Of a stretch of 64,000 nt of DNA, positions 40,586-59,462 are shown piece by piece. The position numbers were made by a program, and so were the translations under genes. Each line of letters opens with the position of its first letter. The stretch's first letter is position 1. Source of the stretch: a virus (Duplodnaviria; Heunggongvirae; Uroviricota; Caudoviricetes); IMG/VR virus record IMGVR_UViG_2657245091_000008. One strand, given 5' to 3'. The notes below the pieces were generated by a model, which saw only the letters and a list, made by a program, of their open reading frames with translations, was not told the DNA's origin and did no database searches.

Positions 40586-40662
40586 TGGCGATGGTGGGTG
40601 GATTCGAACCACCGACCGACAGCTTAGAAGGCTGCTGCTCTATCCTACTGAGCTACACCATC
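40586..40662 (-). tRNA. tRNA-Arg (anticodon UCU)
   Basis: GATGGTGTAGCTCAGTAGGATAGAGCAGCAGCCTTCTAAGCTGTCGGTCGGTGGTTCGAATCCACCCACCATCGCCA; perfect acceptor, D and T stems. Confidence 0.8.
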
Positions 40663-41883
40663 ACTTGCCGGGTACGTCTCCGGCGAGGGCTTCCACCTCC
40701 GTATGCTTTTCGGCGCACCGCGCCCTGGCTGCAATTCGGTAACAGGGGATGCATAACCCTGGCTTCCAGCGTGATTAGCGCCTTCAGCATGACGGGATAT
40801 ACCCGTTACAAGAAATTCCCCCAGGATGCCATTAAGCAATGGCTGTTACGCGGGAGGGACGTAACAGGTAAGGGCGCTGACCAGAAAGACCTGACCCTTC
40901 TCATTCATCTGGTTAATCACACCAGCGCCCTTGCCTGTTATGCCTCCCCGTTCCCTAATACACAGACGGGGACACTCTGCGGTCGATTTTTTGACGGGGG
41001 ACGACTCATACCCCGTGGCGTCTGGCTTCTTAGGCCGCTACCATCATCAGATCATCGTTTGCATTTACTTTAATGGTCGGTTTCTAAACCGCCGCAAAGT
41101 CGCTAACCATGACGAAAACCCTAAAAAAGCCCACCCGAAGATGGGCAAATACGCTACATCTCACACAAGAAAGAAGCCGACTGCCTGAGCTGGATTCACT
41201 TTCAAATGCCCGCAGAAAGGGATCACAAGTCGGCTTCTTTCTTGATGCGGCACTCTCTCCGCCCGTCACCGCTCTGTCTCGGTTGTCGCGTTTGCCACGC
41301 CAGCCGTAACGAGGTTTAAAGTCTTTGCACGTTTCCATCACTCGACTGCCGTCTGTGGCTGTTCGTTGCAGCGGGGGTGCCTCCCCCTGGGGATATCCCC
41401 GGCCTTACCCCATTCTTTCAAGACACAATGCAAGGCCACATCCGCATAGGTGCATTACCGCAACATTAAGGAGACTCAGGGCAAAAGGTAACCGCCACAA
41501 AAATCCCTATGCCTCCTTAATGTTGAAGATGTGCATTGATGATTAGATGCAGCATGTACTGTTACTCTCTGCCGGACCATCATCAATGAACACCTTAAAA
41601 AGACCTTCCGTGGCTCAACATGTATTGTCGTTTACTCCGCAAAGTGCTCTCTCTGAAACCACTTTCCGCACTAAACCTGTTGAACTTTGGTCAGCTCGGT
41701 GCCAAAGCGTGCTTTTGCTTTACTATACTTTTCTAACACTTTAATTTGTTAACAGCCGGTGGGCAAACAATAACCAATAAGTGACTATCAAGCCCAGCAA
41801 GCGAAACGTGGGTGCCGCCCACCAGCAAGGAAAATTCTATGTTAAGTTATCATCACAATCAATACATTCGAATTGTGATTTTA

Positions 41884-41900
41884 GATTTCTAACACATTAC
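41884..41900. promoter_or_regulatory. Operator-like motif copy
   Basis: GATTTCTAACACATTAC. Confidence 0.3.
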
Positions 41901-43120: not shown

Positions 43121-43126
43121 CTTGTT

Positions 43127-43153
43127 AAATTAGTTTTCTAACATATTTTATTA
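43127..43153. promoter_or_regulatory. Operator-like motif upstream of 41897-43120 gene
   Basis: AAATTAGTTTTCTAACATATTTTATTA. Confidence 0.45.
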
Positions 43154-43218
43154 GTTTGATGGCGGTATCGGAAGATGCAATAAACAAAAAACCCGCTAAT
43201 TGGCGGGTTTTTATGCAA

Positions 43219-43533
43219 TTACTGTGTTGCAGCCTGATAAATAAGATACGCGATAAATACAGGTACGATGGCCCATTGCAGCAATGAAAGTAGCCTCATT
43301 ACTGTTATTGGGGTAACTCCATCCACGTATTGTTTCTCTGACATTTTCCCGAACCAACTAACCGACAACAGTGCCGAGTTTTCCCCCAATTCCAGCTCTC
43401 TGAGAGCTTCACGGATTAACGGCGCTGTCACAGCCTTAACCGGTGTGCTCAACGTGATACTCCGCGTCCTCCCCGCATCGTCAGCGAACGCCAGACTCAC
43501 ATAATATTTTTTGCTCAATGTACAAACTCCCAA
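43219..43533 (-). CDS. Hypothetical small protein with C-terminal TM helix
   Basis: 104-aa ORF. Confidence 0.4.
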   Translation of the reverse strand: MGVCTLSKKYYVSLAFADDAGRTRSITLSTPVKAVTAPLIREALRELELGENSALLSVSWFGKMSEKQYVDGVTPITVMRLLSLLQWAIVPVFIAYLIYQAATQ

Positions 43534-43715
43534 TCATCAGCGCTTGCACTTTCCGGGGTTATGTGAACCTTATCGCCAGTAACAATATTGCGAGCTTCAA
43601 AACTTCCATTGATACGTTTCGAGATCTCAATACATAGAGCCTGCTGCCATGAGCGACGACGAGCGATAGCATTAGTTCCTGCAGGGATAAGTTCTGCCAC
43701 GTTAAGTAAACGCAA
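43515..43715 (-). CDS. Small DUF2829-like protein (stand-alone Tad2-like candidate)
   Basis: 66 aa; NAIARRRSWQ...ESASADDWEFVH fits the DUF2829 pattern (basic-W motif and terminal DWE). Confidence 0.35.
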   Translation of the reverse strand: MRLLNVAELIPAGTNAIARRRSWQQALCIEISKRINGSFEARNIVTGDKVHITPESASADDWEFVH

Positions 43716-43729
43716 AACGATTTCTCCGT

Positions 43730-44224
43730 TTAATCAAGACAAACATACTCCGTGATAGCTTTTATGGCTTCAGCGGCACTGCGCGCCTCAAAGCAGTAGT
43801 AACCGGCTTCAGTGAGGCGAGTCATCCAGACGAGTTGTTCGGGAGTCAGGCGATTTCTCCCATGTTTCATCTCAATGCGCATTCCGTGGTATCCCCCACA
43901 AGCAAGGTCTATAGAAAGATCGGGATATCCCTTCTTTTGGCCCTCTGCCACCATTTTTATTGCCGTCCTTATGCCTCGCAGGCCACCGTTTGGAGTGGCG
44001 TGAGTATGCTCATACACATAACGCATATTGCGATACAACCAGTCCAGGACGCGAACCTGCTCGTAATGCTCATGGTTCCTTTTGATTAGATCTGGGTTTT
44101 TCTCCAGTTCTCTAAGAGCTGCGGCATGTGGGGATGTTTCAGAATATTCACTGCGACGCCTTCTCTTTCGCGCTATTTTTCTAACACACCCATTGATAGT
44201 AAATGTGCGAAATAATAACAACAA
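43730..44224 (-). CDS. VRR-NUC domain nuclease-like protein
   Basis: EHYEQVRVLDWL...GYPDLSIDLACGGYHGMRIEMKHGRNRLTPEQLVWMTRL matches VRR-NUC; track start is TTG and overlaps an operator-like motif, true start probably further downstream. Confidence 0.6.
   Translation of the reverse strand: MLLLFRTFTINGCVRKIARKRRRRSEYSETSPHAAALRELEKNPDLIKRNHEHYEQVRVLDWLYRNMRYVYEHTHATPNGGLRGIRTAIKMVAEGQKKGYPDLSIDLACGGYHGMRIEMKHGRNRLTPEQLVWMTRLTEAGYYCFEARSAAEAIKAITEYVCLD
44174..44194. promoter_or_regulatory. Operator-like motif at 5' end of VRR-NUC gene
   Basis: TATTTTTCTAACACACCCATT. Confidence 0.4.
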
Positions 44225-44360
44225 CGTTAGATTTGTAAAACAAGAGAGATACTACTCAAGGATGGTCTATATGCAACAGGTCGGATTTGCTTTTAGAGTA
44301 AAGAGTGACCTTAATCAACAAGGAGGGTAAATCGCATGGCATTTACCCAACCTGTTATTT

Positions 44361-44621
44361 TTAAAGGGTTATTTTATCCTGTTCGGATAATTCTTTGATT
44401 GTCTTGTCGATTGCGATCAACCAACCTTCATAGGTTAAATCATCAACAAGTTCTACCAACTTATCATCGGTGTGAGGAAAGTATATCCAGCTCCAGTTCG
44501 CAGGGTTTTCTGCTTTTCGCAGCGTAAAAACCTTCTTGTATCGGTGGAACTCAAGGATATACCCCTTCGATATGGAATATTCCTTTAGGTCTTCGACCGT
44601 AAACCTACGATTCTTTCGCAT
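44361..44621 (-). CDS. Hypothetical protein
   Basis: 86-aa ORF. Confidence 0.45.
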   Translation of the reverse strand: MRKNRRFTVEDLKEYSISKGYILEFHRYKKVFTLRKAENPANWSWIYFPHTDDKLVELVDDLTYEGWLIAIDKTIKELSEQDKITL

Positions 44622-44623
44622 GG

Positions 44624-45058
44624 CTACCCCATGATTCGATATTTCTCTATAGACTCGTCGTAACTTGTGTACACGTATGGCTCTGTATCATCGGCATAAG
44701 GTGCGACTTCCAGAGCATGAACAGGATTGTATACCGCGTCATTTTCCAGGCGATCGCTCGAATACAGATGCCCAGCCAAAACCGTAAGCGCCGGGCGACT
44801 CATTTTGTAGATCTCTGCCACATCACTATCTACAACTTGTCCAAATGATATGTCGCCGCGCTCCAGCAATAACGTTTTAAGCGCAGGCCACCACGGCCCA
44901 TAAAGGTGATAAAGCTGTGGATCTCGTTTCAGCCTTTCCACCATGCCATTCAGATATGCATCCAGAAACGCCTCTTCACTCCTGCCATTGAGCGCCTGCG
45001 GCAAAATGTCCTCAAGGTAGGATTCCGTCGGTTTTACAGTGTCAATTAATGTCGTCAT
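44624..45058 (-). CDS. Hypothetical protein
   Basis: 144-aa ORF immediately downstream of darB. Confidence 0.5.
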   Translation of the reverse strand: MTTLIDTVKPTESYLEDILPQALNGRSEEAFLDAYLNGMVERLKRDPQLYHLYGPWWPALKTLLLERGDISFGQVVDSDVAEIYKMSRPALTVLAGHLYSSDRLENDAVYNPVHALEVAPYADDTEPYVYTSYDESIEKYRIMG

Positions 45059-45094
45059 TCAAATTCGGCCCCGGTTGGGGCCGCTCCTTATCTG

Positions 45095-48000
45095 TTAGGC
45101 CGCATCGGCGATTATTTTACGCAGTTCATCTACCGAGTAACGCGTAGATACCATCCATGCAGGACGGTCAAAGTTCACATCAGCAACCGGGTTTGCTTCA
45201 AAATTCCAGAAACGCCCGCCAATCTTCTTAATCGCGTCTTTGGCGTTCCGTATTGTCGAGGAACCTGGTTGGTCGGCAATGAGATAAACCGCGCCAACGT
45301 CCTCGCTGACGCTCCACCAGCGCCCGCGAACACGCGCCTTAGCGCGAATCGGCTTATCATTAACCACAATGATATAGTCATCATTCGCCGCTTCATCAGC
45401 TCTGGCTTCAGCCACTGCCGCCTGCTCTTCTCTTTTGCTTTCAGCCTGCTCAAGCCTTTCCGCGATCTCTGATTCAGTGGCCCCGCCGTTTTTCAGCGAT
45501 ACATAGTCCTGCCACGTTGCCGATTTGAGCGCATCCGGCAACTCATTCACATAGTCGCCGTCTTTCAACTCACGGGCGCGACGGGTAGCCATTTCTACCA
45601 GGCGATTAACAGAAACAGCATCAGCAAAATCGTCCTTACTAATGTATTTTTCATCAAATGCATTGATGACAGCCCCCACCTTAATCCACTGTGCTGCCGG
45701 TGATTCCAGGGGGTTATCAGCCTGAACAATGGCTAGTTTTGCTCCATCTACCCCATTATTCGCCAGCTGTTCCAATGCCGCCCATCCATCTGCATCACTG
45801 AGTGATTTATATTGCTCAAACAATGCATCGCGCCAGGCCACCAGCGCAGAACGTGTTTTTTCGATCTTCGTCTTAATTTTCGCTATCTTGACCTGATTAA
45901 ACATCCGTTCAATATCATCGATATTGCTAAAGGCTTTCATCCTGCCCTGGAATAAACGGTATGCCAGCACGGTCCTCCAGAATGATTCCAGACCTTCTCC
46001 GGACGGTTTGCGGAACAAGCTAAGAATATCTTCAGAAGTGACTTTATTAAGCGAACGACCTGACAGACCACGCCCAGCCATCCAGTTTTCGAACTCCTGG
46101 GCAACATCATCCATCGTTGCCTGTGCGCCCCATGCCTGCATTCCCTGGATGTAATCATACCCATACAATGCCTGGAGGAATCCCTCGCCGTCCACGATAT
46201 TCAGCGGGTTATCACTGGCTTGTATTTTTGCCACTTCACGCTTCAGCGCCTCGTCGTTGCCATCAGGATATATCCATCGCTCAGGTGCTATATCCGATGC
46301 TCGCCCGATTTTTTGGCCTATCACGCCATCATAGGTCGATGACAGTGCGATCTGACCATCATCTGTGCGATAAGCCCAGTATTTAATAGCTGACCCACCG
46401 CCCCATGCATTACCAGGTTTACCAGCAATAACATTCATTACCCCATTACGAATAGCATCATAGAACTGATCGCGAGTAAGTATTGTTGATAGCTGGTGGC
46501 ACTGAACACCACGCGCAGCCGTTGCGCGCGATTCAGCAACCCCCTCTTCAAAAGTTACCGCTTCAATCACAGAGTCAAACGGCAATGTAACGATTGACCC
46601 CGGTGATCGAGCGTAACGACTTGCTCTATCCAGCCAGGCGATACGGCAGATGTATTGTGCTTTTTCACCGTCAATTTTTTCCACCCGGACAATCGCTGTT
46701 GTTTCGCGATCATCAATGACTGCACGGTAATAACTACCTTTATGCAACAGGATATTCTTGTCAGTGCGCATATATTCCTGTGGGTTCTGAATAACATCGA
46801 TACTGATATCCAGCACACCAGACTTAATAGCGCGCTCCACATCACCACGAGAGCGTTTCATTATGGTATCCGCGTCTTTTGCCCTGGTGATCGCAAACCG
46901 CAGCACCCGCGCACGTTTTCTGTAGCTACTCAACTGCTCAAGCGCGTATTTTTGCCCATTCCTGTTCGTACCCGCTTTTATCAGGTCGTCAAGATTGCGC
47001 TGGTAATACTCTATCTGTTCCATCGCGCTTTTCAGTTCTGTCTCCATCATGCCGATATCTTTTCCGGCGGCGTTTGCCGCTTTCAGGTAGATATCGAGAG
47101 CATTGTTGGCCTCGCGCTGTGCTTTCAGTTTCAGACGTTCTTCACGCTCTTGCGCCTGGCGAGCCATGATTGCGCGGCGTTCTTCCGGGTTTGCCGCCAG
47201 CATAATGGCGCGTTCATCAGCATCATCCGCATCACCATTGGCGATCTCTGACATGTCGGAGGTCATCACCATCTTGATCCAGTCTTTCTTACGTTTCAGC
47301 GTATCCAGACGGAAGTCGTCGAATGTGCCTTTGCCACAATAGTAGTGAACATTGACCTTTTCTTGCGGTGAACCTACGCGCGCACCGCGCCCATTTCGTT
47401 GGTCGATACTGGCTGGCGTCCAGGGCAGTGTCAGGTGGTGGATATCGGTTGTCCCGATGTGCAGGTTAATACCTACTTCAGCCTTCTTGTTACAGATTAT
47501 GATGCGCGTGCGACCTTCGTTATAGTCGGCGGCAATACCTTCCATGCCCTCAAGGCCAGCATCATTTTTAGCGGAGAGATAATCCTCATATTGGGCAAGT
47601 TTGCTGTAGTAGGTTTCCCATGCCCCTTCTTTGTATTCACCGTTTTTGTTTGGAGTAGGTTCGGTCGGCTTATTCACCTTCTTCAGCTTGATGCCGCCAG
47701 CCTGGCTAACTGTCGTTGCATTGATAATGCCAATCTCCTGCTCCGGCATTTGCAGTGCACTGGCGATAATACGGCGCAGCTTCTGGTGCTGGGCTTTTTC
47801 ATCAATAAAGACGATCTGCTTACCGTTCTTCAGACCTTCACGAAGATTTTCGATCAGCGCGGCATACTTCGGCGGGATGGGGTGCGATACCTGCTGCATA
47901 TCAATACCGGCAGCCGCAATGGCCTTAAGTATTTCAGCTTCCAGTTCAATGCTGGCACGTATTTCAACATGCGTCGGATGTTCACTAAAAGCGGTCTTCA

Positions 48001-51000
48001 CTACCTTGCTGGTACGCGTACTGACCAGCCCGCCAGCGCCGTCTTCCTCGGCCTCATCAACATCATCTGCCACTTTACCGCCAGCTACTTTTGGCAAGGC
48101 ATCAGCAATAGCTTTTACCTGGTCTGCAAGCTCAACGGGGAACTGGAATGTAATCGCACTGGCATACAGATCCGGGTCTATAGCAACCTTGTCCATGTCA
48201 CGGATGATGGAGAAGATGAAATCATCCGGTTTGTCGTTAGTGATATGCCCGTTTTCATCGACTGTCAGCTCATCATTGCGACTTAACTCCTGAGCACGCT
48301 TACGAAGCTCTTCATAAGCAGTCTCCTGCTCCCCTGTCATCGGGATCTGCAAGGTGTTCTCAATGATGTCGGGAATTTTAACCGTTGCTCCGACATCTGC
48401 AGCAGTCTTCAGAGTGGTCCAACGATGGAAAATACCACGCAGGCCGTCAAGGTTCTGGAAGCCCACCAGCCCCTGCTTCTCTTCCACTTCCCCGGAAATT
48501 TTCTGGACCTGAACTGTGGCTGTTTTGCCAAACACACGAACGAAATCATCAGGCGTAATGATGCCCATGCGCATCCACTCTTCCTGCGGAATGACAGTAG
48601 ACAGCATGTTGAAGGCATCAATCGGACTGTTCACCAGCGGAGTTGCCGTCAGCATGACTACACCACGCCCGTTGTTGCGTTTCATCATGTACGCAGCTTT
48701 TACAGCCATGTCGCGGGCCATCTTGGATACTGCCGGGTTAGGCAAATATGCCAGTTGTCCCGCTTCACGCCCGGCATTAAAGGAGTTGCGGTAGTTATGC
48801 CCCTCGTCGGCAATCACGCTATCGAAGTTCATATCCTCAAAGTACGGGATATTCTGCTTCTTCGTTGTACCGGTATTCGCGGCCTGATCCTTAATCTTGT
48901 TCTTCTTCTGCGCATCACGGTGTTTACCGGACGCCAGGTCAAGACGCCCCATTTCCACAGCATTAAAGACAGCTTGCTGTGAGTTCTCCTCGATGGTTTT
49001 TTCTCGTAGCGGGATAGACGCGAATTGTTCTTTTGTCATGATGACCGTTCGCCAATTTGACGACGGGATCATGTTCATGCGCTGAACGATAACGGCGCTG
49101 GCGGACTCTTTCACAACATTTCTGGTAAGAGGCTGCCCGTTACTGTCGAGGCGTGGTTCGCCATTTTCATCAAGCACCGGCGCGGTCAGAATATTTCCGC
49201 TGTCATCACGAACTTCATCCAAACCGATAAACATCATATTGGCGAAGGCATCAGCACTGTAGAAACTCTGTGCCTCGTGATACCAGTTCTGATAAACCGC
49301 CTTCGGAACAACAATACACGTGCGTTTAGTGCGACCTGTTTCGAAGTTATACGCCTCAAGCGCAAGCGCGGTCGTGGTTTTACCCAGCCCGGTACCAAAT
49401 CCCATGATGCCGCGCCCATCTTCTGACAAGCGCCGAACTTCTTCATTCTGATAAGTCAGAGGAATGCGCTTTCCACTAATCCCTTCCAGGCCAAGCGGTG
49501 CGTCAGAATGCGTGAACGGAATGAAACCATTGAATGCGTCGTTATACTCGCGGGCTATCTGATCAGCCTGCGGGTGAGTGCGTAACCAGTCGTTAAAGCT
49601 AACTTCCAGTTGAGCAATTTTATCCAGGTACTCGTTAGCGTTCTGCCCACGCGGTTTAACACCGTTCAGGTAGTTTTCTAACTGGTTCAGGAAGCCGTCT
49701 TTATTGTTGGCCTTCTTGAACTCATTCCCGTTTTTGCCGTTTACGGTTCGTAGCTGATAGCCGGTAAATACACCGTCCTTACCTTCGTAATCGTCCGGAG
49801 ATACCAGAATGCCATCGACGACCTTCAGATCAGGTTCAGTGTACTTAAACTCGTCATAGCCCTGCTCTGCCAGGAACTCTTTTATCAAGCGGCGATCCAG
49901 CCAGCGGGCATTCAGATTAACGGTGACTTTATTTAGTGGCGTGAAAATACGTTTCTCTTCGATTTTCGCCAACTGACGCTCAAAGTTGGCTTTCTGCTCA
50001 CCTGTTGACGCATCACGCCAGCTCATCAGCAAAGCTGTTTTGGTTGCAATATCGCCGCTGGTGGCGCGGTCCATCGGCAGCAGGCAGCCATACCCATCAA
50101 TAGCGATATCATCAAATTTCGCCAGGTATTCAAGGGCCGCGTCGTCGTCCTCTGGCAGTTCACCAGCAAACGCCTCACGAAAGTCTCCCAGCGTTATAGG
50201 ATTAAGGGCTACATCACTGAAAAGATGTGCTATCACTTGTTCAGGACGTGTAAAGTCAATACCGGCAGCACCATCCGTTACATCAAGTCGCCCTGCCAGA
50301 AGGTCAGAAGTGGAACCATCCTGTTTCACATTGCCAGTGAACGTCATCCAGTTTTTAGCGCCAGCTTCAGCAAGCCCATTCAGCTTAATGGCGTGCGGTG
50401 GCCCATACTTCGCAACTTCTGCTGCCGCCAGGCGGGATGCATCTGCCAGTTTGTCATCAACGTTCACACCCAGGTTACGCAAATCAAGTGCCTTGTTGAT
50501 CAACTGACCTATCAGCGCACCGCGCATAACGCGCTCCCTGTCTTTTTCTCGCTGCTTGCCAGCAAAGCGAATCATTGCTGCCACTTCATCACTGACAACC
50601 GATGGATAGTCGGACGCGATCGCCGATATCTGGTCCCATGACAAAGCCAGAATCCCGTTTGTTGACTGGAACGCGATCTGCAGATCGCCAAACGTCGAAA
50701 CACCATATCGACTTACATCAAGCGCGGAGGATTTGGTTGTCGTGTCCTTAACCCATTTCAGACCATCAAACTCATGCCAGATACCGCCTACAAGGCGTTT
50801 ATCGCCCACTTTCGCGCCCTGCCATGCCTGAGTAGTTACGCCGAGCAAATCCCAATTGATGCGACTATCAAAGCGACGAGATAGCGCGGTTTTCATCGAC
50901 TCATTGGATACACGACCGTCTTTTTTCACCACCAGGGTATTGCGGAAGCTGGTACGTTCCATGTCGCCGTAAACAAATCGCTTCCCTTCGGTTGTAAACC

Positions 51001-51931
51001 ATTTTCCTTTGAGGAAGGTATCCCAAAGGACGTTTGCCGATTTGAGTGTTGAATCATCCGTGTCGGGGATCATCTCCAGGAAGGTTTCCGGGTGTTTACG
51101 CAATACCCATACGTCCACCACGGTATCTGTACCGGATTCGCTGAACGTACCAGAAGGCATACGATGTGCGCCCAAAAATTCCGCTTTACGGCTGACTTTA
51201 TCGCGCAATTTTTTATATTTCGCACCATCGGTCATGCCATTCGGCACCACCAATACGATAAGCCCACCAGGCTTAACCTTGTCGATCGTGCGCAGCACAA
51301 AGTAATTGCCAACGTTCTTCTCGTTTGCATATGCCGGATCAAGCCCGGCGACACCGGAACGCCCTTCACCAAACGGTACGTTACCAACAGCGTGATCATA
51401 CATTGCGTCTTTCGCCGCCAGCGCCTCAAACGCCCCGATATTCACATCGTCTTCCGGGTGCAAAAGCTGGTTTATTCGACCGGAAATCGGAGACAGTTCG
51501 GCGCTGGTCATTATCATGCCCTGCCGTTTTGTCTCCTGGAAAATACCTGTGCCCGCTGATGGTTCCAGTACGTGCCCGCCATCAATACCGTAGTCAGCAA
51601 ACAGATCCCATATACCTTCAGCCATAAACTGTGGCGTGTAGTATTCGTATTGGCTGCCCTCACCATCTGTCAGGCCGCCTTCACCGGTATACCCGGCAAG
51701 AATCTGACGTTGTTCGTCAGTTAATTTCGCCCCATCGAAGCCGGGCGGAAGGGAATTAAGAAGATTTACTGCGGCATTATTTGCTGCCCGGCGTGTTTTC
51801 TGAATACTGACGCCATCGGCTTTCCTGACGCCAAAGGTCGCAACAGCACGTAATTTATGCAACCGACTAACAATTTCAATCAGTTCGCCTAAGCTGGAGG
51901 CTTCACTGATTGAATGAAGTAGTTTGTCCAA
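45095..51931 (-). CDS. darB: DarB-like giant antirestriction protein (N6-adenine methyltransferase plus DExH helicase domains)
   Basis: 2278 aa; MTase motif I LEPSAGTGIF and motif IV NVPFG; helicase Walker A GFGTGLGKTT and VIADEGHNYRN; size matches P1 DarB (about 2255 aa). Confidence 0.8.
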   Translation of the reverse strand: MDKLLHSISEASSLGELIEIVSRLHKLRAVATFGVRKADGVSIQKTRRAANNAAVNLLNSLPPGFDGAKLTDEQRQILAGYTGEGGLTDGEGSQYEYYTPQFMAEGIWDLFADYGIDGGHVLEPSAGTGIFQETKRQGMIMTSAELSPISGRINQLLHPEDDVNIGAFEALAAKDAMYDHAVGNVPFGEGRSGVAGLDPAYANEKNVGNYFVLRTIDKVKPGGLIVLVVPNGMTDGAKYKKLRDKVSRKAEFLGAHRMPSGTFSESGTDTVVDVWVLRKHPETFLEMIPDTDDSTLKSANVLWDTFLKGKWFTTEGKRFVYGDMERTSFRNTLVVKKDGRVSNESMKTALSRRFDSRINWDLLGVTTQAWQGAKVGDKRLVGGIWHEFDGLKWVKDTTTKSSALDVSRYGVSTFGDLQIAFQSTNGILALSWDQISAIASDYPSVVSDEVAAMIRFAGKQREKDRERVMRGALIGQLINKALDLRNLGVNVDDKLADASRLAAAEVAKYGPPHAIKLNGLAEAGAKNWMTFTGNVKQDGSTSDLLAGRLDVTDGAAGIDFTRPEQVIAHLFSDVALNPITLGDFREAFAGELPEDDDAALEYLAKFDDIAIDGYGCLLPMDRATSGDIATKTALLMSWRDASTGEQKANFERQLAKIEEKRIFTPLNKVTVNLNARWLDRRLIKEFLAEQGYDEFKYTEPDLKVVDGILVSPDDYEGKDGVFTGYQLRTVNGKNGNEFKKANNKDGFLNQLENYLNGVKPRGQNANEYLDKIAQLEVSFNDWLRTHPQADQIAREYNDAFNGFIPFTHSDAPLGLEGISGKRIPLTYQNEEVRRLSEDGRGIMGFGTGLGKTTTALALEAYNFETGRTKRTCIVVPKAVYQNWYHEAQSFYSADAFANMMFIGLDEVRDDSGNILTAPVLDENGEPRLDSNGQPLTRNVVKESASAVIVQRMNMIPSSNWRTVIMTKEQFASIPLREKTIEENSQQAVFNAVEMGRLDLASGKHRDAQKKNKIKDQAANTGTTKKQNIPYFEDMNFDSVIADEGHNYRNSFNAGREAGQLAYLPNPAVSKMARDMAVKAAYMMKRNNGRGVVMLTATPLVNSPIDAFNMLSTVIPQEEWMRMGIITPDDFVRVFGKTATVQVQKISGEVEEKQGLVGFQNLDGLRGIFHRWTTLKTAADVGATVKIPDIIENTLQIPMTGEQETAYEELRKRAQELSRNDELTVDENGHITNDKPDDFIFSIIRDMDKVAIDPDLYASAITFQFPVELADQVKAIADALPKVAGGKVADDVDEAEEDGAGGLVSTRTSKVVKTAFSEHPTHVEIRASIELEAEILKAIAAAGIDMQQVSHPIPPKYAALIENLREGLKNGKQIVFIDEKAQHQKLRRIIASALQMPEQEIGIINATTVSQAGGIKLKKVNKPTEPTPNKNGEYKEGAWETYYSKLAQYEDYLSAKNDAGLEGMEGIAADYNEGRTRIIICNKKAEVGINLHIGTTDIHHLTLPWTPASIDQRNGRGARVGSPQEKVNVHYYCGKGTFDDFRLDTLKRKKDWIKMVMTSDMSEIANGDADDADERAIMLAANPEERRAIMARQAQEREERLKLKAQREANNALDIYLKAANAAGKDIGMMETELKSAMEQIEYYQRNLDDLIKAGTNRNGQKYALEQLSSYRKRARVLRFAITRAKDADTIMKRSRGDVERAIKSGVLDISIDVIQNPQEYMRTDKNILLHKGSYYRAVIDDRETTAIVRVEKIDGEKAQYICRIAWLDRASRYARSPGSIVTLPFDSVIEAVTFEEGVAESRATAARGVQCHQLSTILTRDQFYDAIRNGVMNVIAGKPGNAWGGGSAIKYWAYRTDDGQIALSSTYDGVIGQKIGRASDIAPERWIYPDGNDEALKREVAKIQASDNPLNIVDGEGFLQALYGYDYIQGMQAWGAQATMDDVAQEFENWMAGRGLSGRSLNKVTSEDILSLFRKPSGEGLESFWRTVLAYRLFQGRMKAFSNIDDIERMFNQVKIAKIKTKIEKTRSALVAWRDALFEQYKSLSDADGWAALEQLANNGVDGAKLAIVQADNPLESPAAQWIKVGAVINAFDEKYISKDDFADAVSVNRLVEMATRRARELKDGDYVNELPDALKSATWQDYVSLKNGGATESEIAERLEQAESKREEQAAVAEARADEAANDDYIIVVNDKPIRAKARVRGRWWSVSEDVGAVYLIADQPGSSTIRNAKDAIKKIGGRFWNFEANPVADVNFDRPAWMVSTRYSVDELRKIIADAA

Positions 51932-52082
51932 AGGATTTCCCCCTCTAAACCGTAAAAAATTCCGCTATGCGGTACGGTTGAGAGGGTATGGAGAATGTTA
52001 TTTTCAGGGGGACGATACTACCGTCAAAATCACATACTCCCCATAGTTTGCCTACTTATTAACCCATGACCGGGAGAAAAAT

Positions 52083-52568
52083 ATGGCAAACATTGAACCT
52101 CGCTGGCTAATTGAAGCCCGTAAGCACATTGGCCTGACTGAAATAAAAGGCGCTAAACACAACCCTGAAATCGTTCAGTTCTGGCGCGACATCAAGCGCG
52201 GCGGAATTAAAGACGATGAAACGCCGTGGTGCGCAGCATTTGTCGGTGCAATGCTGGAACGTGTAGGCATCCGCTCAACAAGATTTGAGTCGGCAAAATC
52301 CTATCTGGATTGGGGCGAGAAATTAGATACACCGGCATACGGATGTATCGTTGTATTTACCCGCGTAGGCGGTGGACACGTAGGCTTCGTTGTCGGACGC
52401 CGCGCCAATGGCGATCTGCTTGTCTTGGGTGGGAACCAGGGGGATGCGGTTAATATTCGCGCATTCCCAACATCAAGAGTGTCTGGCTATCGCTGGCCTG
52501 CTGGCGAACCACGCAATACCGCTCTGTTACCAGTCGGAGACGCAGCAACCTCAACTAATGAGGCATGA
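52083..52568 (+). CDS. Putative cell-wall peptidase-like protein (TIGR02594 / CHAP-NlpC-P60-like); possibly Ulx-equivalent
   Basis: 161 aa; PWCAAFVGAML and GGGHVGFVVG Cys/His signature; divergent from darB. Confidence 0.5.
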   Translation: MANIEPRWLIEARKHIGLTEIKGAKHNPEIVQFWRDIKRGGIKDDETPWCAAFVGAMLERVGIRSTRFESAKSYLDWGEKLDTPAYGCIVVFTRVGGGHVGFVVGRRANGDLLVLGGNQGDAVNIRAFPTSRVSGYRWPAGEPRNTALLPVGDAATSTNEA

Positions 52569-52592
52569 AAAAAGCCCCGGCCAGGCCGGGGC
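52567..52592 (-). terminator. Intrinsic terminator (minus strand) ending the icd/ant copy 2 operon
   Basis: On minus strand GCCCCGG-loop-CCGGGGC followed by TTTTTTC. Confidence 0.55.
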
Positions 52593-52600
52593 ATCACGCT

Positions 52601-52801
52601 TCAAGTCACGATCCAATCATTACCGACTATATCAGCCGTCGATAAATCAACTTCCCGGATCTGGAGTCCATTAATACAAAACCATCCGGTAGTAGAGTAA
52701 TTATCAGGCCAGGCCCATACACCAACACTCCATGCTTTACGGCGGCACACTTCAGCCTGTCCTTCCCTGATTTTTTTTACCGCCTGCATGATGTCCATCA
52801 C
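52601..52801 (-). CDS. Small DUF2829-like protein downstream of antirepressor copy 2
   Basis: 66 aa; VKKIREGQAEVCRRKAWSVGVW...ADIVGNDWIVT fits the DUF2829 pattern; terminator follows. Confidence 0.4.
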   Translation of the reverse strand: MMDIMQAVKKIREGQAEVCRRKAWSVGVWAWPDNYSTTGWFCINGLQIREVDLSTADIVGNDWIVT

Positions 52802-53505
52802 TCACCTCCCCAACCGATCACCTGGAATTGCCCCATTTTGGGGTGATACCAGCGTTTTCCTCGGTGTTCAGCCTCCGACATCATCCGGTTAAAAGCATTC
52901 ATGAAGGGATATAAGGCCACGATGGAACGACGCGACAATACCCCCTCTGGAGTTAAAAACTCATGCGTATCGGTGGGAATCCGGTAAGCGTTGACAAGGT
53001 TGCGGCATTTGGCTTCAGTCAGGCCACATTTCGCCGCCAGCTGGCGGTAGCCAATGTAGCCTTCCGGAATATTGCCTTTCTTTATTTGCTCGACGGTTTC
53101 AGCGACCTGGCTAACCTTTGACTCAACAGCATGAATCCGCTTTTGCTGCTGAACTGCATTCGCAGCCATTGCAGCGATCATCTCTATTTCGGTCAACGGC
53201 TGGCGTACTTGTTCTTCCAGTTCGCGCCAGCGGTCCACCAGCCGGGCGGTGAATTCGGGAGAGAGCTGCGCGACGACAATGATGCTGTCTCGTTTGCCTT
53301 GCTCGCCTTCGAAGACGTAAGCCTCAACGCCACGACGCAATCCTAAGTTATTGATTTTTTCGAAAACAGCCATTGGCGGTTTTCGGATAATGCTTCGAGC
53401 AACCATACGCTCAATACTACGTTTAACGTCAGAGTGTTGGCTTCCCACCAGCTCCGCAATCTCAATGCTGGTCATTGATAGTTTTTCGAGAATGCAGATA
53501 CCCAT
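52798..53505 (-). CDS. Phage antirepressor-like protein (Rha family N-terminus), copy 2
   Basis: MTSIEIAELVGSQHSDVKRSIE; paralog of 11718-12617; ATGA coupling with icd-like gene. Confidence 0.7.
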   Translation of the reverse strand: MGICILEKLSMTSIEIAELVGSQHSDVKRSIERMVARSIIRKPPMAVFEKINNLGLRRGVEAYVFEGEQGKRDSIIVVAQLSPEFTARLVDRWRELEEQVRQPLTEIEMIAAMAANAVQQQKRIHAVESKVSQVAETVEQIKKGNIPEGYIGYRQLAAKCGLTEAKCRNLVNAYRIPTDTHEFLTPEGVLSRRSIVALYPFMNAFNRMMSEAEHRGKRWYHPKMGQFQVIGWGGE

Positions 53506-53729
53506 CAGTGAGCCTCCGCAATGCCGGGATTGGTAATATTGCGATACCAGGGATTAGTGTTTGGTTGTGGGGAAGTAGAGAAACGACCAGTAAGAACACC
53601 ATGCTGATCAGGGATCAGAGAACGGGCTTCTTTTTCGGTTGCGGCAATTGCGAAGTGATCGCAGCGTTTTTGCAGGGAGTGGAAACGCCAGATGAATTCT
53701 GGACGTGAACAAGGATTGGCATTAACCAT
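53505..53729 (-). CDS. Icd-like host cell division inhibitor, copy 2
   Basis: 74 aa; EFIWRFHSLQK...TEKEARSLIP paralog of 12617-12832. Confidence 0.55.
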   Translation of the reverse strand: MVNANPCSRPEFIWRFHSLQKRCDHFAIAATEKEARSLIPDQHGVLTGRFSTSPQPNTNPWYRNITNPGIAEAH

Positions 53730-54057
53730 AGTTACGGCCTCACTAACAGGTTTAACAACCTGCCACCCGCTGTCAAACAGGTGGCAGGACGTGACAGGGT
53801 TGACAGACTGGCGTTAGTGAAACCAGCAGGCCGAAGCCTCCCCATCACGCCCCACCATAATTCGGGCGTAACGCGGTTTACGGACACAAAAATACCGCAA
53901 TATCGGAAATCTGCGGTTGTCCGCACTAACATTCAGGCTGTCAAACCCGGTCGCAGAATTTGCTACGACGGCATGAATATAAGCCTGAAAACATGGAAGA
54001 TCAACTAAAAATTTCAGCAATGGATGACTTCAGTCGATGATGCAGATCATACATTCC

Positions 54058-54096
54058 GTTTTAGAAACAGCAAATTAATTTTCTAACATAAATCAT
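54058..54096. promoter_or_regulatory. Operator-like motif pair
   Basis: TTTTAGAAACAGCAAATTAATTTTCTAACATAAATCATC. Confidence 0.4.
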
Positions 54097-54142
54097 CGGC
54101 CGAGCATTTTCCGATCATTGGGATGTTTTGTAGACACACAGG

Positions 54143-55105
54143 TCATCCCCTAAATCCCGCAGGGATTGACCAATCCTCACGGTCAAATTCAGACCGATAG
54201 CCACGCTGTTTCATCAGGTCAAAGGCTTCACCAATGGTTGCACACCCCTGGGAGCCAGAATAATCCATTGAGAAATCTAGGGCACTGGATTGTTTAGGCT
54301 TATTCACTGCGGTAGCGGCACTACGTATCCATGCAAATTTTTTTGCCAGCTTTTCAGCGGTACGATACAGAGCCTGCCGTTTTGCGTGCCCCTCGTCTGA
54401 ACGACGCTTTGCAGCTCTCGCTTTTGCCGCCGCCAGGCAGTGGTTGGTATGTTCTTCCCTGATTACTGGTTTTTTATCCAGTACCACGTTATCCGTTTGA
54501 GAACTATCTGCTGGTGAAGCCTTTGGCTGAACCGCGCATGATCTTTCTCTTCTTTTGGCTATAGAGTGACTCTTATTTTCTATTGGCTGTTCATTTTGAA
54601 CATGGGGGGACTTGTTCAATTTGAACAGGGGGTTCCCAGTTTCAAAAAAATAACGAACCTTTGAAATCAACTGCTTAACCAGTTTTGTGGCGTTGGCAAA
54701 TTTGATGCCCTGCTTACCCCCTATCTCCATTGCTACATGAATGAAGTGGAGAAATTGTGTCGTAAACCGATATACGTTACACACCTGGGCATTGTTATTC
54801 GCTACCTGATGTTGCTTAACAAGCATTCCGCACTTCGTCGCTTCAGCAAATGCCCGGCGCACAGTAGAAATACTGCGTCCTGTAATCTCGGACATATCAG
54901 CATATGAGCGACGGATCATGTATTCATCGGTAGACCCTGCCAGGTTAGCGAACTCGGCAATAATGGCGCTATGTGAAGGGGAAAGAAGACCGCTATGACG
55001 AGCAAAAAAACTCAACTGATGACCTTTGATTTTTTTGTGGTATTCAGTGTTGTTTTTATACTCAGAAGTGTTGAAAGTTACTGAAACTGAATTTAAAATA
55101 CTCAC
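54143..55105 (-). CDS. Hypothetical HTH-containing protein (possible RepL-type replication/regulatory protein)
   Basis: 320 aa; HTH-like MSEITGRSISTVRRAFAEATKCGMLVKQ; operator-like motifs flank the gene. Confidence 0.45.
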   Translation of the reverse strand: MSILNSVSVTFNTSEYKNNTEYHKKIKGHQLSFFARHSGLLSPSHSAIIAEFANLAGSTDEYMIRRSYADMSEITGRSISTVRRAFAEATKCGMLVKQHQVANNNAQVCNVYRFTTQFLHFIHVAMEIGGKQGIKFANATKLVKQLISKVRYFFETGNPLFKLNKSPHVQNEQPIENKSHSIAKRRERSCAVQPKASPADSSQTDNVVLDKKPVIREEHTNHCLAAAKARAAKRRSDEGHAKRQALYRTAEKLAKKFAWIRSAATAVNKPKQSSALDFSMDYSGSQGCATIGEAFDLMKQRGYRSEFDREDWSIPAGFRG

Positions 55106-55274
55106 CAGATAGTTCCGTGAAAAAATCTATCTACCGTATAAATCTATGGCAGTGGATTTATACACCCAAAAAGCCGCTTCTCAGCGGCTTTTGCTTTTTT
55201 GGCAGTCGCTACCGGAGCAGTGACCGCGATCCTACTCGATCCCATCCACCAGGATCAACAGTGTATATAAATAC

Positions 55275-55295
55275 ACTATGTTAGAAATTTAACTT
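55275..55295. promoter_or_regulatory. Operator-like motif upstream of 54143-55105 gene
   Basis: ACTATGTTAGAAATTTAACTT. Confidence 0.4.
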
Positions 55296-55305
55296 AACAA
55301 GGCGA

Positions 55306-56304
55306 TTACCCCCTTCTAGAAACGAAGAGTAACGGGGTGGTGTTTTTGTTCTCTTTCGGTGATAACTCTGGTTCTTTCTTGCCTGATACCGGTAAGCCAT
55401 AAGTAGCATTTGCCCCAAGAGATTCAAGCATCGCAGCCACTATGCGGGCATCATCTTCAGACTGCATACGGCAGAGCGCCCGGCGCTGTTCTGCGCTGAT
55501 AAAAACAGGCATTTCCTGGATAGCGTCACGCAAAATCCGGCGGCATTGCTTTGCATTTTCCCCCTGGCTTTCCATCATCGCTGTTTGAGCGCGCAGCTTA
55601 TCTCGAAGCTGTATGTTTTCCACTTCAAGGAGCATCAATTCTGATTCCAGGGCTTCACGATGTGCAGATTCGAGCATGGCTTGCTGATTTTTCATTGCTG
55701 AAAAGTGGTGAACCAGATCCGTAGCAGCGTTATCAGTAAAACCTTGTTCGATAAGTGCTGCATGAATAGCCGCATCGCGCTCTTCTGCTGATTCAAGCAT
55801 CAGGCTTTTCTTGTCGAGGCTGATATAGTTAGGCACAGTTACGTAATCAAAGCCGTGGAAAGACTTTACCAGGGATACCGATGAATCTGGACCAGATGTA
55901 GCCCACGACCAACCACCAGCACCAGAATTAATCATGCCCTGAACAATACGCCCGGTGTCTGTATCCAGTATTTCCTGCGTATGCGTAACAATGCCGTTGT
56001 CGTCAATCGAAATGTCGATAGTCCTGTTTGACGGCACGTTCTCCAATACAACAGGCTTCCCATCTACCATCACAACAGAGACTTCCGGCAAGTTCAGGCT
56101 TTTCGTTTTGTTATAGTGCATCGCCCGGCGACCATGACCGTAATAACCATACATCTCACCCAGCGCGATACGCTCTTTTGTTTCTGGCGAGTTGAATGTG
56201 TCTCGTACCGACTGAATGACGTAATTTCGGTTGTTCTGCGGTGTGTGTTTGCGGATTTTCTCTACCAGGGAGAAGCGATCCGTAACAGTATTCAGTGATT
56301 GCAT
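55306..56304 (-). CDS. Putative head morphogenesis protein (prohead protease/scaffold-like, pro position)
   Basis: 332-aa ORF directly downstream of portal-like gene; C-terminal coiled coil; by synteny. Confidence 0.4.
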   Translation of the reverse strand: MQSLNTVTDRFSLVEKIRKHTPQNNRNYVIQSVRDTFNSPETKERIALGEMYGYYGHGRRAMHYNKTKSLNLPEVSVVMVDGKPVVLENVPSNRTIDISIDDNGIVTHTQEILDTDTGRIVQGMINSGAGGWSWATSGPDSSVSLVKSFHGFDYVTVPNYISLDKKSLMLESAEERDAAIHAALIEQGFTDNAATDLVHHFSAMKNQQAMLESAHREALESELMLLEVENIQLRDKLRAQTAMMESQGENAKQCRRILRDAIQEMPVFISAEQRRALCRMQSEDDARIVAAMLESLGANATYGLPVSGKKEPELSPKENKNTTPLLFVSRRG

Positions 56305-56317
56305 TATTTCCCTCCGG

Positions 56318-58000
56318 TTAATTGCTCATCACAAATTTTGCAAAGTTTATTAACTGTTCTGGCGTCCAGTTTTCCGGATCGTCACCGGACGACAACGGCG
56401 CGGATTCGTACATACCATGCTCGTTGTTTTGCTCTGATTCATTCGCCTTAAACTCTTTGATCATGGTGTTGAGAGTGTCATCGTCGATGTGCAACTGCTC
56501 GATGAACAGATAACGCATAAACGCGTCACTACCAGCCAGTTTCGGGTTGTTCTGGATCTGGTCCATAATTTGGGAGATGACAGCAACAAAGTTGGCGCGT
56601 GCATCCAGTTCCCGGTTTTCCTCTTCCTGGATAGCAGTGTTCATTGAGTTGAATTGCACGTCATAAGGACGGTTTTTTTCGGTGTAAACCTTCCCGTATT
56701 TATAAGCGAGGTGAATATCATGAAGCCGATAAATAGTTCGCTGGGCGGCCTGTCTGATCCAGTTCGCACGTAATGCGGCCTGGATAGCTGTTTGCTGCCA
56801 ACCGCCTTCCCCAAGTCCACCACTCATCTGATCAGCCCAGCCAAGCATTGTTGCGTCAATGCCTAGGCTTGCAGCAAGCTGCCGGAGGTGAAACATAACG
56901 TCTTCGATACCACTGATATCTGCGGGTATGGATTGCGTATCAATGGTGATGCCATTCTTCCCATCCCCCATAACAGGTATCAGGTGGTTTAGCACCGTCG
57001 GAATAGCGTTGGCATTAATCGACCTTTGCGCCACCAGGTCACTATGACGCTTCAATGCCTGACTGACGCCACGCGTATAGTTCGCCGCATTAACCGGGTC
57101 CAGTGTATTCGTCGTAAGAGCAATCAGGCGGTCAATTTTGGCTGCATTATTTCGCGTTGATTTCAGCGCGGCGAGCGCAGCACATAAATTCAGGTAAGGT
57201 TCATAGCTGTATTCAAGGAATGAAGTTCCGTAATTCTGCGTCTCCATTAACGGCTTATCAGCCTGCTCACTTAACAGTGAGTACCCTTTTGTGCCGTAGC
57301 TAACCGGAATAACTTTATGCTGCGGCGTCCAATAGGGATTTTTCATGGAAACCAGATTCCACGGTTCGGTTATTACTCTGCGCAAACTATGCGTATCCAG
57401 GATGTAATCACCACTGAAACCTACCAGCTGGCTACCACGATAAAACTCCTGGACGAAGTGTGGCAGAGTGTAATAACTGGACTCAATGCCTGTTATCCCC
57501 CTGCCCTGTTCAGCATAAGGGCGGACATAAGACACCCCAAAGATCGCCATAATCATGGCCCATGAAGGAAGTCCGTCATTAATCATCGCCCCCAAATCAG
57601 CGGTTAACTCTTCACATCTACTTACTGCCTCGGCATCGGAACCATCCTTTGGCGAAAGGATGAATGCTTGTCCGGTTTTTTTTGAAGGCGCAAGCGCATG
57701 TGCAATGTGAATGTTTAAAGCCGTCGAGATAGTCGGGCTTTTAGCCATCGTTTCCAGGATGTTGTACTTTTGCAGGCGCTCGCCGGGCAGTTCAGCGGAT
57801 AAAGAAATTGAATCTGCTGCACTCGTCATGCCATCGCTGTTGCTCCCCAGTATACCTGGACGTAAAGCAGACAGGCCGGAACGAGCAACGACACTATGCC
57901 CGCTCGTAAAAACGACCGGATCGGCGGGCGTAACATCACCACCGTTGAAGGCTTTCTTCAATGCTGACAGAAAGCCTTTATTTTTGTCTTTCGTTGCCAT
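56318..58000 (-). CDS. Putative portal protein (prt position)
   Basis: 560-aa ORF in head gene block between Dar-like genes and pro-like gene; by size and synteny. Confidence 0.45.
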   Translation of the reverse strand: MATKDKNKGFLSALKKAFNGGDVTPADPVVFTSGHSVVARSGLSALRPGILGSNSDGMTSAADSISLSAELPGERLQKYNILETMAKSPTISTALNIHIAHALAPSKKTGQAFILSPKDGSDAEAVSRCEELTADLGAMINDGLPSWAMIMAIFGVSYVRPYAEQGRGITGIESSYYTLPHFVQEFYRGSQLVGFSGDYILDTHSLRRVITEPWNLVSMKNPYWTPQHKVIPVSYGTKGYSLLSEQADKPLMETQNYGTSFLEYSYEPYLNLCAALAALKSTRNNAAKIDRLIALTTNTLDPVNAANYTRGVSQALKRHSDLVAQRSINANAIPTVLNHLIPVMGDGKNGITIDTQSIPADISGIEDVMFHLRQLAASLGIDATMLGWADQMSGGLGEGGWQQTAIQAALRANWIRQAAQRTIYRLHDIHLAYKYGKVYTEKNRPYDVQFNSMNTAIQEEENRELDARANFVAVISQIMDQIQNNPKLAGSDAFMRYLFIEQLHIDDDTLNTMIKEFKANESEQNNEHGMYESAPLSSGDDPENWTPEQLINFAKFVMSN

Positions 58001-58064
58001 GAATCACCGCAAATTGTTTCCAGTTTTGCGGCAGCATAATCAGTATGTGATTTCAGCGGTTGGT

Positions 58065-59462
58065 TTAGTTTTCCGTACGGCAATTATTTAAATCTGTAGA
58101 ATTTTCAAACATAGCAAAGTTCAGACCTTTCCCTTCGCCAAATTCACCCTCAATTTCATCAGATACAGCAGACAAAATACGACGCAGATCAACATCGCCA
58201 CCGCCGAACATATCGCCTAATGCCTGTTGTTTATGAGTCAGCTCGTCGTTGATTTTTTGCGCCATTTTTTTGAATGCTGCCCCCATACGCTTCGCACTGC
58301 GATTATTTGCTACGATGAATAACGCCAATGCCTCAGCTTCCGGTGTACTGTCGCCGAATAACCCCCTTTGGGCGATCACTTCTTCAACGGCCTGACCGTT
58401 GTCTTTGGCTTCACGTACAAGATTAATTGCTTCCTGGAGTGCTGCTATCGCCTGTGTATCCAGGCTATTAACCTGCTCTATACCGTCCACTAATCCTGTT
58501 ACTGCGTCATGGTGAGCGTCGCCAGACAGCGACTGCATTTGCGCAAAATCGCTGGCTGCCGTATTTAATGCGGTCAGGATATTACGCATTTCCGGATCTG
58601 GCTCTTCCGACACCAGCCGAACAAGCCTTTCATCCTTGTACGCTTTGGCAAAAATTGCATTCTGAATGCGATCGATAAGCTGTTTCGTGGGACGCCCATC
58701 GGCAGTAAGCAAGCCTGCCGTCGCTGTATCGCCAATTTCACGCAAAAACGCACGAATAAACGCATCATTGGATCGCGCCAGCAGATTTCCATCATCTGAA
58801 GGATTAAATAGCGCCATGACGCTCTCAGTGAGAAATTGCGCATCCGCATACGCTTTTTCACTTGCTGCCATCTCTTGCAGATCGCTAATGTTTGAATCGC
58901 GGGCAAATTGAGCGCGGTCTACATCTGTGAGTCTTTCTCGCACCAGTACGGGCATAGACATTTGCGAAATTTCGTCAGGATTCAGACCAAACTCTTTCGC
59001 ATGGTCGATCAGGTACTGGCGATACTCATCCGCCTGTCCCTGCTCATAGGCACGCCAGATACCCATACTCCTTCCGTTGCCGGATTCAACAACGTTGTCC
59101 GGACCGACTATCGGCGCTCCGTGGCTGCTCATACCGGAATCCGTTAATTGTGCCGGGCGTAAATTAGAGGCAATACGGTTAACCTGGAGTTTGCTGGATA
59201 GCCGGGTACGATCTCGTGGTTGGAGTTCTTCCGGGAAGGCCGGGTTAATCGTACCGTCAAGGTTGTTCGAAATGATCAGACTGCTGGCATCAACGACCTT
59301 AAAAGCCGTCTTTACCTCTGCACCTTTGCTGGTGACTACGTAGCTACTTCGCCCCAGACGTGTTTCTTCCCTTTCTAATGAAGAAACCAGAGCAATGACG
59401 CTGTTAATATCTGCGGCCTCGGAAAGCGCAGAAGTAACTGATTTGTTCAAAATACACTCCAA
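58065..59462 (-). CDS. Hypothetical head-associated protein (Ddr-like position)
   Basis: 465-aa ORF downstream of darA-like gene. Confidence 0.4.
   Translation of the reverse strand: MECILNKSVTSALSEAADINSVIALVSSLEREETRLGRSSYVVTSKGAEVKTAFKVVDASSLIISNNLDGTINPAFPEELQPRDRTRLSSKLQVNRIASNLRPAQLTDSGMSSHGAPIVGPDNVVESGNGRSMGIWRAYEQGQADEYRQYLIDHAKEFGLNPDEISQMSMPVLVRERLTDVDRAQFARDSNISDLQEMAASEKAYADAQFLTESVMALFNPSDDGNLLARSNDAFIRAFLREIGDTATAGLLTADGRPTKQLIDRIQNAIFAKAYKDERLVRLVSEEPDPEMRNILTALNTAASDFAQMQSLSGDAHHDAVTGLVDGIEQVNSLDTQAIAALQEAINLVREAKDNGQAVEEVIAQRGLFGDSTPEAEALALFIVANNRSAKRMGAAFKKMAQKINDELTHKQQALGDMFGGGDVDLRRILSAVSDEIEGEFGEGKGLNFAMFENSTDLNNCRTEN

Follow-up and report, generated by a model that had tools for sequence, protein, structure and literature searches.

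In bacteriophage P1, lxc, ulx and darB run leftward and prt and pro rightward, the two groups being divergent neighbours separated by a spacer of 75 bp, and the genes c4-icd-ant1/2-kilA-repL are located about 31 kb from darB, between sim and rlf/pmgF. For Escherichia phage D6 (MF356679 / NC_050154), the GenBank annotation lists, in the order used here, ulx, darB, a putative peptidoglycan hydrolase gene on the opposite strand, orf17, a Roi-like antirepressor gene, icd, repL, pro, and prt. For the D6-like plasmid pYU39_89, a previous article (PMC6799933) already describes a second c4/icd region together with the hydrolase gene next to it. The locus considered here comprises positions 45095-56304 of a sequence of 64,000 nucleotides from a virus of the Caudoviricetes (IMG/VR record IMGVR_UViG_2657245091_000008); this whole stretch is referred to as the window. 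The locus contains darB, a hydrolase gene with a CHAP domain, a second immunity cassette designated immI-2, the lytic replication gene repL, and pro. An earlier interpretation based on the letters alone, the sequence-only reading, had viewed the locus as a departure from the P1 order and as a recombination hotspot beside darB.

Over its full length, the locus is 98.2% identical in nucleotide sequence to D6, and local BLAST against the D6 record placed it in a single collinear block extending from 40586 to 58053 of the window. To P1 and P7, nothing could be matched at the DNA level except a patch of 372 bp. The synteny comparison bore out that the gene order is unlike that of P1. The layout itself is present in the D6 record, however, and with the second c4/icd region reported for pYU39_89 the finding as originally put forward was already known. 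It is very probable that this is how the region is normally organised in the D6 lineage of P1-related phage-plasmids, and that no P1-like order was recently interrupted here. The apparent break in the P1 map corresponds to the published D6 map, leaving no new insertion hotspot or anti-defence island to be counted. Four units may be distinguished: a darB-ulx anti-restriction operon, arranged as in P1, the CHAP hydrolase gene, the lytic replicon repL, and the immI-2 cassette. Not stated in PMC6799933, the D6 genome paper (Gilcrease & Casjens 2018) being outside this comparison, are the exact insertion or deletion (indel) that sets the locus apart from a sister lineage, the identity of the second C4 RNA with P1 C4 and its compensated D6 allele, the split versus fused form of the antirepressor, and the operator-like motif.

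The sister lineage was found among the PLSDB plasmids carrying this repL, a few of which are only about 71% identical in DNA sequence. In the E. coli plasmid pHX138.33gt_1 and in Shigella dysenteriae plasmids, the order ulx-darB / CHAP / repL-pro-prt is present without icd, ant, and c4 in between, and 103 bp take the place of the 1.5-kb cassette. The Salmonella plasmid pSa1423-90k was left out as a witness of synteny because of its fragmented annotation. BLAST homology of the window to the sister-lineage sequences L007 and L008 ends at 52522 and resumes at 54143, the stop codon of repL. Read by eye, the ends of the cassette are located at 52593, after a G+C-rich hairpin, and at 54125, 17 nt before the repL stop. 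Judged from these alignments, immI-2 is a lineage-specific indel, and repL and the CHAP gene, which is also present in the sister lineage, are backbone. The immI-like module had been proposed to be an inserted segment, and to this extent the proposal was confirmed by a genuine indel. Two accompanying predictions did not hold. The cassette-free lineage has a homologue of the terminator ascribed to the insertion, situated between CHAP and repL, and the hairpin therefore predates the cassette or is independent of it. Flanking direct repeats, expected as marks of insertion, were searched, and neither direct nor inverted repeats beyond chance were detected at the cassette junctions, the longest shared word being 6 nt, as in shuffled sequence. 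The cassette carries no transposase and does not have the features of a transposon or insertion sequence (IS). The precise 1.5-kb indel that immI-2 forms between the two lineages is a small addition for specialists on P1 and phage-plasmids.

Between the window and the sister lineage, the backbone is 77-81% identical, whereas the c4 segment shows 93% identity to P1 and 98% to a P1-like Shigella flexneri plasmid. Because the cassette is absent from the sister lineage and c4 is so much closer to P1-like elements than the backbone is to that of the sister lineage, recombination with a P1-like phage-plasmid most likely brought in the cassette or replaced its c4 part. The reverse course appears unlikely, namely that all of the D6 group inherited the cassette from its ancestor and that the sister lineage lost it by a clean deletion; the near-identity to P1 would then result from later gene conversion or from strong constraint on the RNA. 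The linkage of immI and repL could indeed be old, since both are joined in one operon in P1, and the Shigella sister plasmids are degraded, with repL and other genes split and no C4 RNA detectable anywhere. In the E. coli sister plasmid, however, repL is intact and the junction is equally precise. In addition, the order of repL followed by c4 differs from P1, and the contrast between backbone and c4 identities fits a recent acquisition better.

Even less probable is the proposal that the spacer next to darB is a recombination hotspot that gathers regulatory or anti-defence cargo by insertion. The whole 11.2-kb interval is covered to at least 80% in one piece by 101 PLSDB plasmids, but an early-gene control of equal size (15500-26709) by a single plasmid (NZ_CP031917.1, 99.8%). 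Likewise, D6 and the window are collinear here and mosaic between 15.5 and 30.4 kb, where local BLAST yielded short matches only. Compared with the rest of the genome, the interval is conservative in structure, and with 101 plasmids against one a hotspot at the population level is not supported. Single events in this region do occur. The immI-2 cassette itself is an indel, its c4 patch shows 93-98% identity to P1-like elements within a backbone that otherwise does not align, an IS200/IS605 element with tnpA and tnpB is inserted between darB and CHAP in pHX138.33gt_1 (L007 9626-11315), and, independently of this insertion, a TnpB element is found between c4-2 and repL in plasmid p2_035123 (L012 3323-4492). 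Flanking repeats are missing, on the other hand, repL and CHAP belong to the backbone, and the cargo is an immunity module. Anti-defence functions had been suspected as well, and orf17 shows weak Tad2-like matches, but this assignment was supported neither by the curated threshold nor by the predicted fold or profile-profile comparison. The content is immunity and regulatory, and not demonstrably anti-defence.

Table 1. Features of the darB-immI-2-repL-pro region; positions refer to the window.
Feature	Position	Strand	Description
ulx homologue	44624-45058	-	Follows darB in one operon, as in P1
darB	45095-51931	-	2278 amino acids (aa); giant methyltransferase/helicase anti-restriction protein
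CHAP/TIGR02594 peptidoglycan hydrolase gene	52083-52568	+	Divergent from darB
G+C-rich hairpin	52574-52592		Terminator for both directions, between CHAP and the orf17/ant unit, which converge; terminator scan
immI-2 cassette, whole	52593-54125	-	About 1.53 kb
orf17	52601-52801	-	65/66 aa; ATG overlaps the ant stop by 1 nt (UGAUG)
ant-2, candidate Rha/Roi-type antirepressor gene	52798-53505	-	Phage_pRha 30.5 bits (cut-off 29.9)
icd-2, homologue of cell-division inhibitor gene	53505-53729	-	59% identity to P1 Icd
a2/b2 C4 target sites	53738-53776	-	a2 53770-53776, b2 53741-53747
C4 antisense RNA gene	53777-53862	-	RF01695 68.8 bits (Rfam gathering score 45)
a1/b1 leader	53924-53982	-	a1 53938-53944, b1 53924-53930
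Sigma-70-like promoter	53976-54004	-	TTGATC, 17 nt, TATATT; promoter scan; aligns with P1 promoter P1c4 (P51b)
Candidate D6-type C1 operator	54058-54089	-	ATGTTAGAAAATTAATTT and inverted partial copy GTTTCTAAAAC; 50-85 bp upstream of the promoter
repL, lytic replication initiator gene	54143-55105	-	320 aa
Tandem 20-bp units, each internally palindromic	54588-54632		TGTTCAnnnTGAACAnGGGG; 25-bp spacing; inside repL; repeat search
Terminator-like hairpin	55169-55192		Between pro and repL; terminator scan; counterpart at L007 13069-13094
Operator-like core TGTTAGAAA, second copy	55279-55287	+	Between pro and repL; conserved at this place in the sister lineage (L007 13181, L010 39663)
pro, head-processing protein gene	55306-56304	-	44% identity to P1 Pro, E 9e-85
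ATGTTAGAAAAYTAATTT sites in the window	2122, 13634, 14292, 18789, 31881, 33291, 41730, 41886, 43135, 44178, 54080, 55279

Within immI-2, the sequence of the mature 77-nt P1 C4 RNA is found at 53780-53856 with an exact match of 77/77 residues. The leader (53930-53982, minus strand) was recognised as RF03163 with 55.2 bits (Rfam gathering score 46.7). The motifs a1, b1, a2, and b2 are all identical to those of P1, and b2 abuts the Shine-Dalgarno sequence GAGG of icd (53738-53741). For the cognate duplexes between C4 loops and targets, energies of -11.8 and -13.1 kcal/mol were obtained. The icd-2 gene was also detected with NF033153 (38.4 bits, cut-off 25), and its stop codon shares one nucleotide with the start codon of ant-2 at 53505. 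A covariance match to C4, complementarity to a1/b1 and a2/b2, and an icd gene coupled to an antirepressor gene are features that the cassette shares with immI of the P1 type. An open reading frame (ORF) of 66 aa at 53732-53932 overlaps the C4 RNA and the leader and was dropped as a gene.

The icd/ant genes had been counted as a second copy, and rightly so, as Rfam finds two C4 RNAs in the window, the first immI copy being located at 12887-13097. Copy-1 immI (12844-13097, minus strand) has a C4 RNA of its own at 12887-12974, the motifs of which, TTGGAAC and GCAAAAGG, are unrelated to those of copy 2. By their motifs, the two copies should be orthogonal in loop specificity. A match to 'isrK' in Rfam at 13019-13097 corresponds to the a1/b1 leader of copy 1. 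This copy adjoins a simB homologue and occupies the P1-like position.

To compare immI alleles, an alignment was used that comprises P1, P7, D6, the window, and three plasmids, the latter representing only the few that were fetched. The P1-type allele (a TTGACAG, b GTTAGTG) is present in the window, in a D6-like plasmid of Salmonella Thompson, and in a P1-like Shigella plasmid. In the P7-type allele both a and b differ from P1, and the D6-type allele, shared by D6 and p2_035123, has a as in P1 and ACTTACG as b. The b-loop of C4-2 reads CACTAAC in the window, as in the P1 allele, versus CGTAAGT in D6 and p2_035123, where b1 and b2 are changed to match. Energies of b-loop duplexes were -11 to -12 kcal/mol for cognate and -4 to -6 kcal/mol for non-cognate combinations. 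Whichever allele is considered, changes in the C4 loop are matched in both copies of the targets. Such covariation is good evidence for selection on the pairing, and thus for a functional immI-2. It is highly improbable that immI-2 is a duplicate of the first immI module that has lost its function and is decaying, as the apparent redundancy of two immunity modules and the resemblance of ant-2 plus orf17 to a split version of a fused 313-aa Ant of the copy-1 type might suggest, since all its ORFs are intact and coupled, the RNA and the four target sites are intact, the three-way compensatory changes among the alleles keep the pairing, the cassette is conserved in about 100 plasmids, and the frameshift in the window is situated in the copy-1 Ant and not in copy 2. 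The compensated alternative b-loop of D6 and the P1-identical C4 found here constitute a natural experiment on the specificity of antisense immunity and on cross-talk between compatible phage-plasmids.

Searches with a degenerate C4 pattern gave no match in viral_contigs and none in metagenome_contigs. A single match was obtained in genome_contigs, on the 16.7-kb contig JBEBWV010000114.1 (L016 3561-3597), which is labelled as part of an Achromobacter deleyi metagenome-assembled genome. The genus is unexpected, and the contig may be a mis-binned fragment of a P1-like element.

The product of ant-2 was assigned to phrog_63 'anti-repressor Ant' (E 5e-45) and is 65% identical to residues 1-237 of P0005, a protein of 313 aa. 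For orf17, which belongs to phrog_7385 of unknown function, a HMMER scan revealed 45% identity to residues 255-312, the last 58 of the same protein. As Ant-2 corresponds to the N-terminal and orf17 to the C-terminal part of P0005, the two together appear to be a copy-1-type antirepressor in split instead of fused form, so that the antirepressor exists in both fused and split (ant + orf17) versions. The copy-1 Ant of the window (11718-12617, minus strand) has 299 aa, its C-terminus being frameshifted relative to the intact P0005. The family of orf17 homologues is tiny, with three word-index matches and seven HMMER matches, among them P0004, a spurious repeat protein.

The sequence-only reading had described orf17 as DUF2829-like, a label for which no search reached significance. 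Its match to the Pfam family Tad2-like/DUF2829 (PF11195) reached 15.1 bits, below the cut-off of 25, and those of its relatives 16.5, 14.0, and 23.9 bits, all of them below threshold, with hits spanning the whole domain. No Tad2 was found among PDB sequences by phmmer and profile searches with orf17. Both AlphaFold2 models that were made are poor (one with a pLDDT of 62.7), and Foldseek searches of PDB with the weak model gave nothing with E < 1. In hhalign comparisons with the DUF2829 profile from within the window, 13 C-terminal columns only were aligned (DWxV motif), with a probability of 4%. A weaker possibility than the exchange of immunity cassettes considered below is that on induction orf17, or the C-terminal domain of Ant, would be released as a divergent Tad2-like signal sponge. 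Elsewhere in the window, next to dut (30514-31008, minus strand), an ORF of 218 aa (29843-30499, minus strand) has a C-terminal PF11195 domain (62.3 bits, cut-off 25) and served as the positive control for this family. By its domain, the product is a candidate anti-Thoeris sponge. The gene is part of the early region at 15500-30400, which is the real mosaic zone of the window and matches D6 in short patches only.

RepL is 28% identical to P1 RepL over 293 aa (E 4e-28), which identifies it as a homologue, and tblastn revealed matches to RepL of P1, P7, RCS47, and SJ46. It belongs to phrog_2418 and shows a weak match to HTH_36; no RepL homologues were detected in genome_contigs. Weak matches to RepL or to the region also occur in Klebsiella, Pantoea, or Cronobacter. 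A protein of 320 aa with a helix-turn-helix motif had been predicted at this place. The ORF and the weak HTH_36 match are there, but the protein is RepL and belongs to the backbone, not to inserted cargo. No kilA homologue with which repL could be co-transcribed as in P1 was found in the window. The palindromic pair inside repL also occurs in the sister lineage (L007 12446-12491) despite about 23% nucleotide divergence, and a motif resembling it was not seen in P1 repL. By analogy with P1 oriL, the pair is a candidate for an internal origin. The gene is situated downstream of prt-pro, behind a terminator and preceded by an operator-like site.

This site belongs to a recurrent motif. The window contains 12 copies of the core TGTTAGAAA (extended consensus ATGTTAGAAAAYTAATTT), against an expectation of 0.63. 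Both c4 genes, c1, and ref have copies upstream, and another is located between pro and repL. The Shigella sister plasmid contains 16 sites, among them pairs that precede lpa, c1, and ref and a counterpart of the one between pro and repL. Because its distribution mirrors that of the C1 operators of P1, the motif is a good candidate for the D6-type C1 operator. The late-promoter consensus of P1 is absent from the region.

Taken together, immI-2 is probably a self-contained second immunity cassette consisting of an operator-like site, a promoter, a1/b1, C4, a2/b2, icd, ant, and orf17. The way in which it would work is modelled here on P1 immI, an analogy that covers the processing of the RNA, the activity of the antirepressor, and the function of the operator as well as the origin. 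The transcript would be processed to release C4, the two loops of which would base-pair with a2/b2, either in cis or on a sister transcript, thereby occluding the ribosome-binding site of icd. With icd, ant, and orf17 translationally coupled via UGAUG overlaps, the whole unit would be silenced. If C4 control is escaped, Icd would block cell division and the Rha-type Ant would counteract a C1-type repressor, so that repL and lytic genes would be derepressed. Several points weigh against this picture of an acquired immunity unit of the P1 type. Since repL is located upstream of c4 and kilA is missing, the regulatory wiring may differ from P1. Ant-2 gave no significant BLASTP match to P1 Ant1/Ant2 or KilA and is thus not a P1-type Ant; its putative role as antirepressor is assigned by family annotation. 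The candidate operator motif is also found beside the morphogenetic genes pmgS and pmgM, where a repressor site is less expected, and the P1 C1 operator consensus is absent from the region even with up to 4 mismatches. Finally, gain and loss of the cassette, compared here without an outgroup, are not rigorously polarised.

A tentative extension is that immI-2 is an exchangeable cassette of immunity specificity, the alleles of which are swapped between two very distant lineages under frequency-dependent selection; this is possible but on balance doubtful. If true, the shared P1 C4 should lead to cross-regulation with co-resident or superinfecting P1-like phage-plasmids, each C4 silencing icd/ant of the other element. 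Sibling D6-like elements with the b-loop allele of D6 would escape this cross-talk.

For the part of the region preceding the cassette, the sequence-only reading had named a giant darB gene and a divergent CHAP-like gene, and both are present. DarB is 43% identical to P1 DarB across 2000 aa and contains the domains N6_Mtase, SNF2-rel_dom, ResIII, and Helicase_C. Its giant size, the methyltransferase and helicase domains, the homology to P1 DarB, and the adjacent ulx gene place it in the DarB family. The CHAP gene product scored 31.4 bits with CHAP (cut-off 26) and 143 bits with TIGR02594 (cut-off 70.6), and it also matches phrog_1259 (tail lysozyme) and endolysin phrogs. Because it is the sole recognisable murein hydrolase of the window, the protein is probably a lysis or virion-associated enzyme. 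The suggestion that the CHAP gene might be the equivalent of Ulx was ruled out. Protein comparison revealed no similarity to P1 Ulx, and the true Ulx homologue is the product of the gene downstream of darB, with 46% identity to P1 Ulx (E 3e-43) and a match to phrog_1629 'Ulx-like anti-restriction' (E 2e-59).

Two observations on the flanks concern the relation to D6. At 58053-58105, between prt and ddrB, the window is without about 1.1 kb of D6 (25241-26352) containing orf23 and orf24, the latter specifying a DUF4145 protein. On the other side, at 39176-40662 (minus strand), ARAGORN predicted five tRNA genes (Met, Ser, Thr, Tyr, Arg). In the homologous stretch of D6, three tRNAs are annotated on the opposite strand (Ser, Thr, Asn), which is either a conflict of annotation or a difference in content.

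Among described systems, D6 and D6-like plasmid prophages such as pYU39_89 are the closest, and from orf14 to orf22 of D6 the set, order, and orientation of genes are the same as in the window. With the darB region of P1, the ulx-darB operon is held in common, and homologues of prt and pro are found nearby in the window. Unlike in P1, prt-pro is inverted and points toward darB, with CHAP, immI-2, and repL in between, and lxc and res/mod are absent. A search for homologues of P1 lyz, kilA, ant1, lxc, and rlfA/B in the window found none. Compared with the immI-kilA-repL arrangement of P1 and its operators Op51 and Op53, immI and repL are physically linked in both phages, each preceded by an operator-like site. 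However, repL is upstream of c4 in the window and downstream in P1, the antirepressor belongs to the unrelated Rha/Roi family, kilA is lacking, and the coupled orf17 is extra. Furthermore, the cassette of the window is located between darB/CHAP and pro-prt and is a second copy. The heteroimmunity of P1 and P7 is a matter of allelic changes confined to the a and b elements, with compensating changes in C4 and both sets of targets. In the D6 lineage a third allele, with a as in P1 and a b element of its own, segregates beside the P1 allele.

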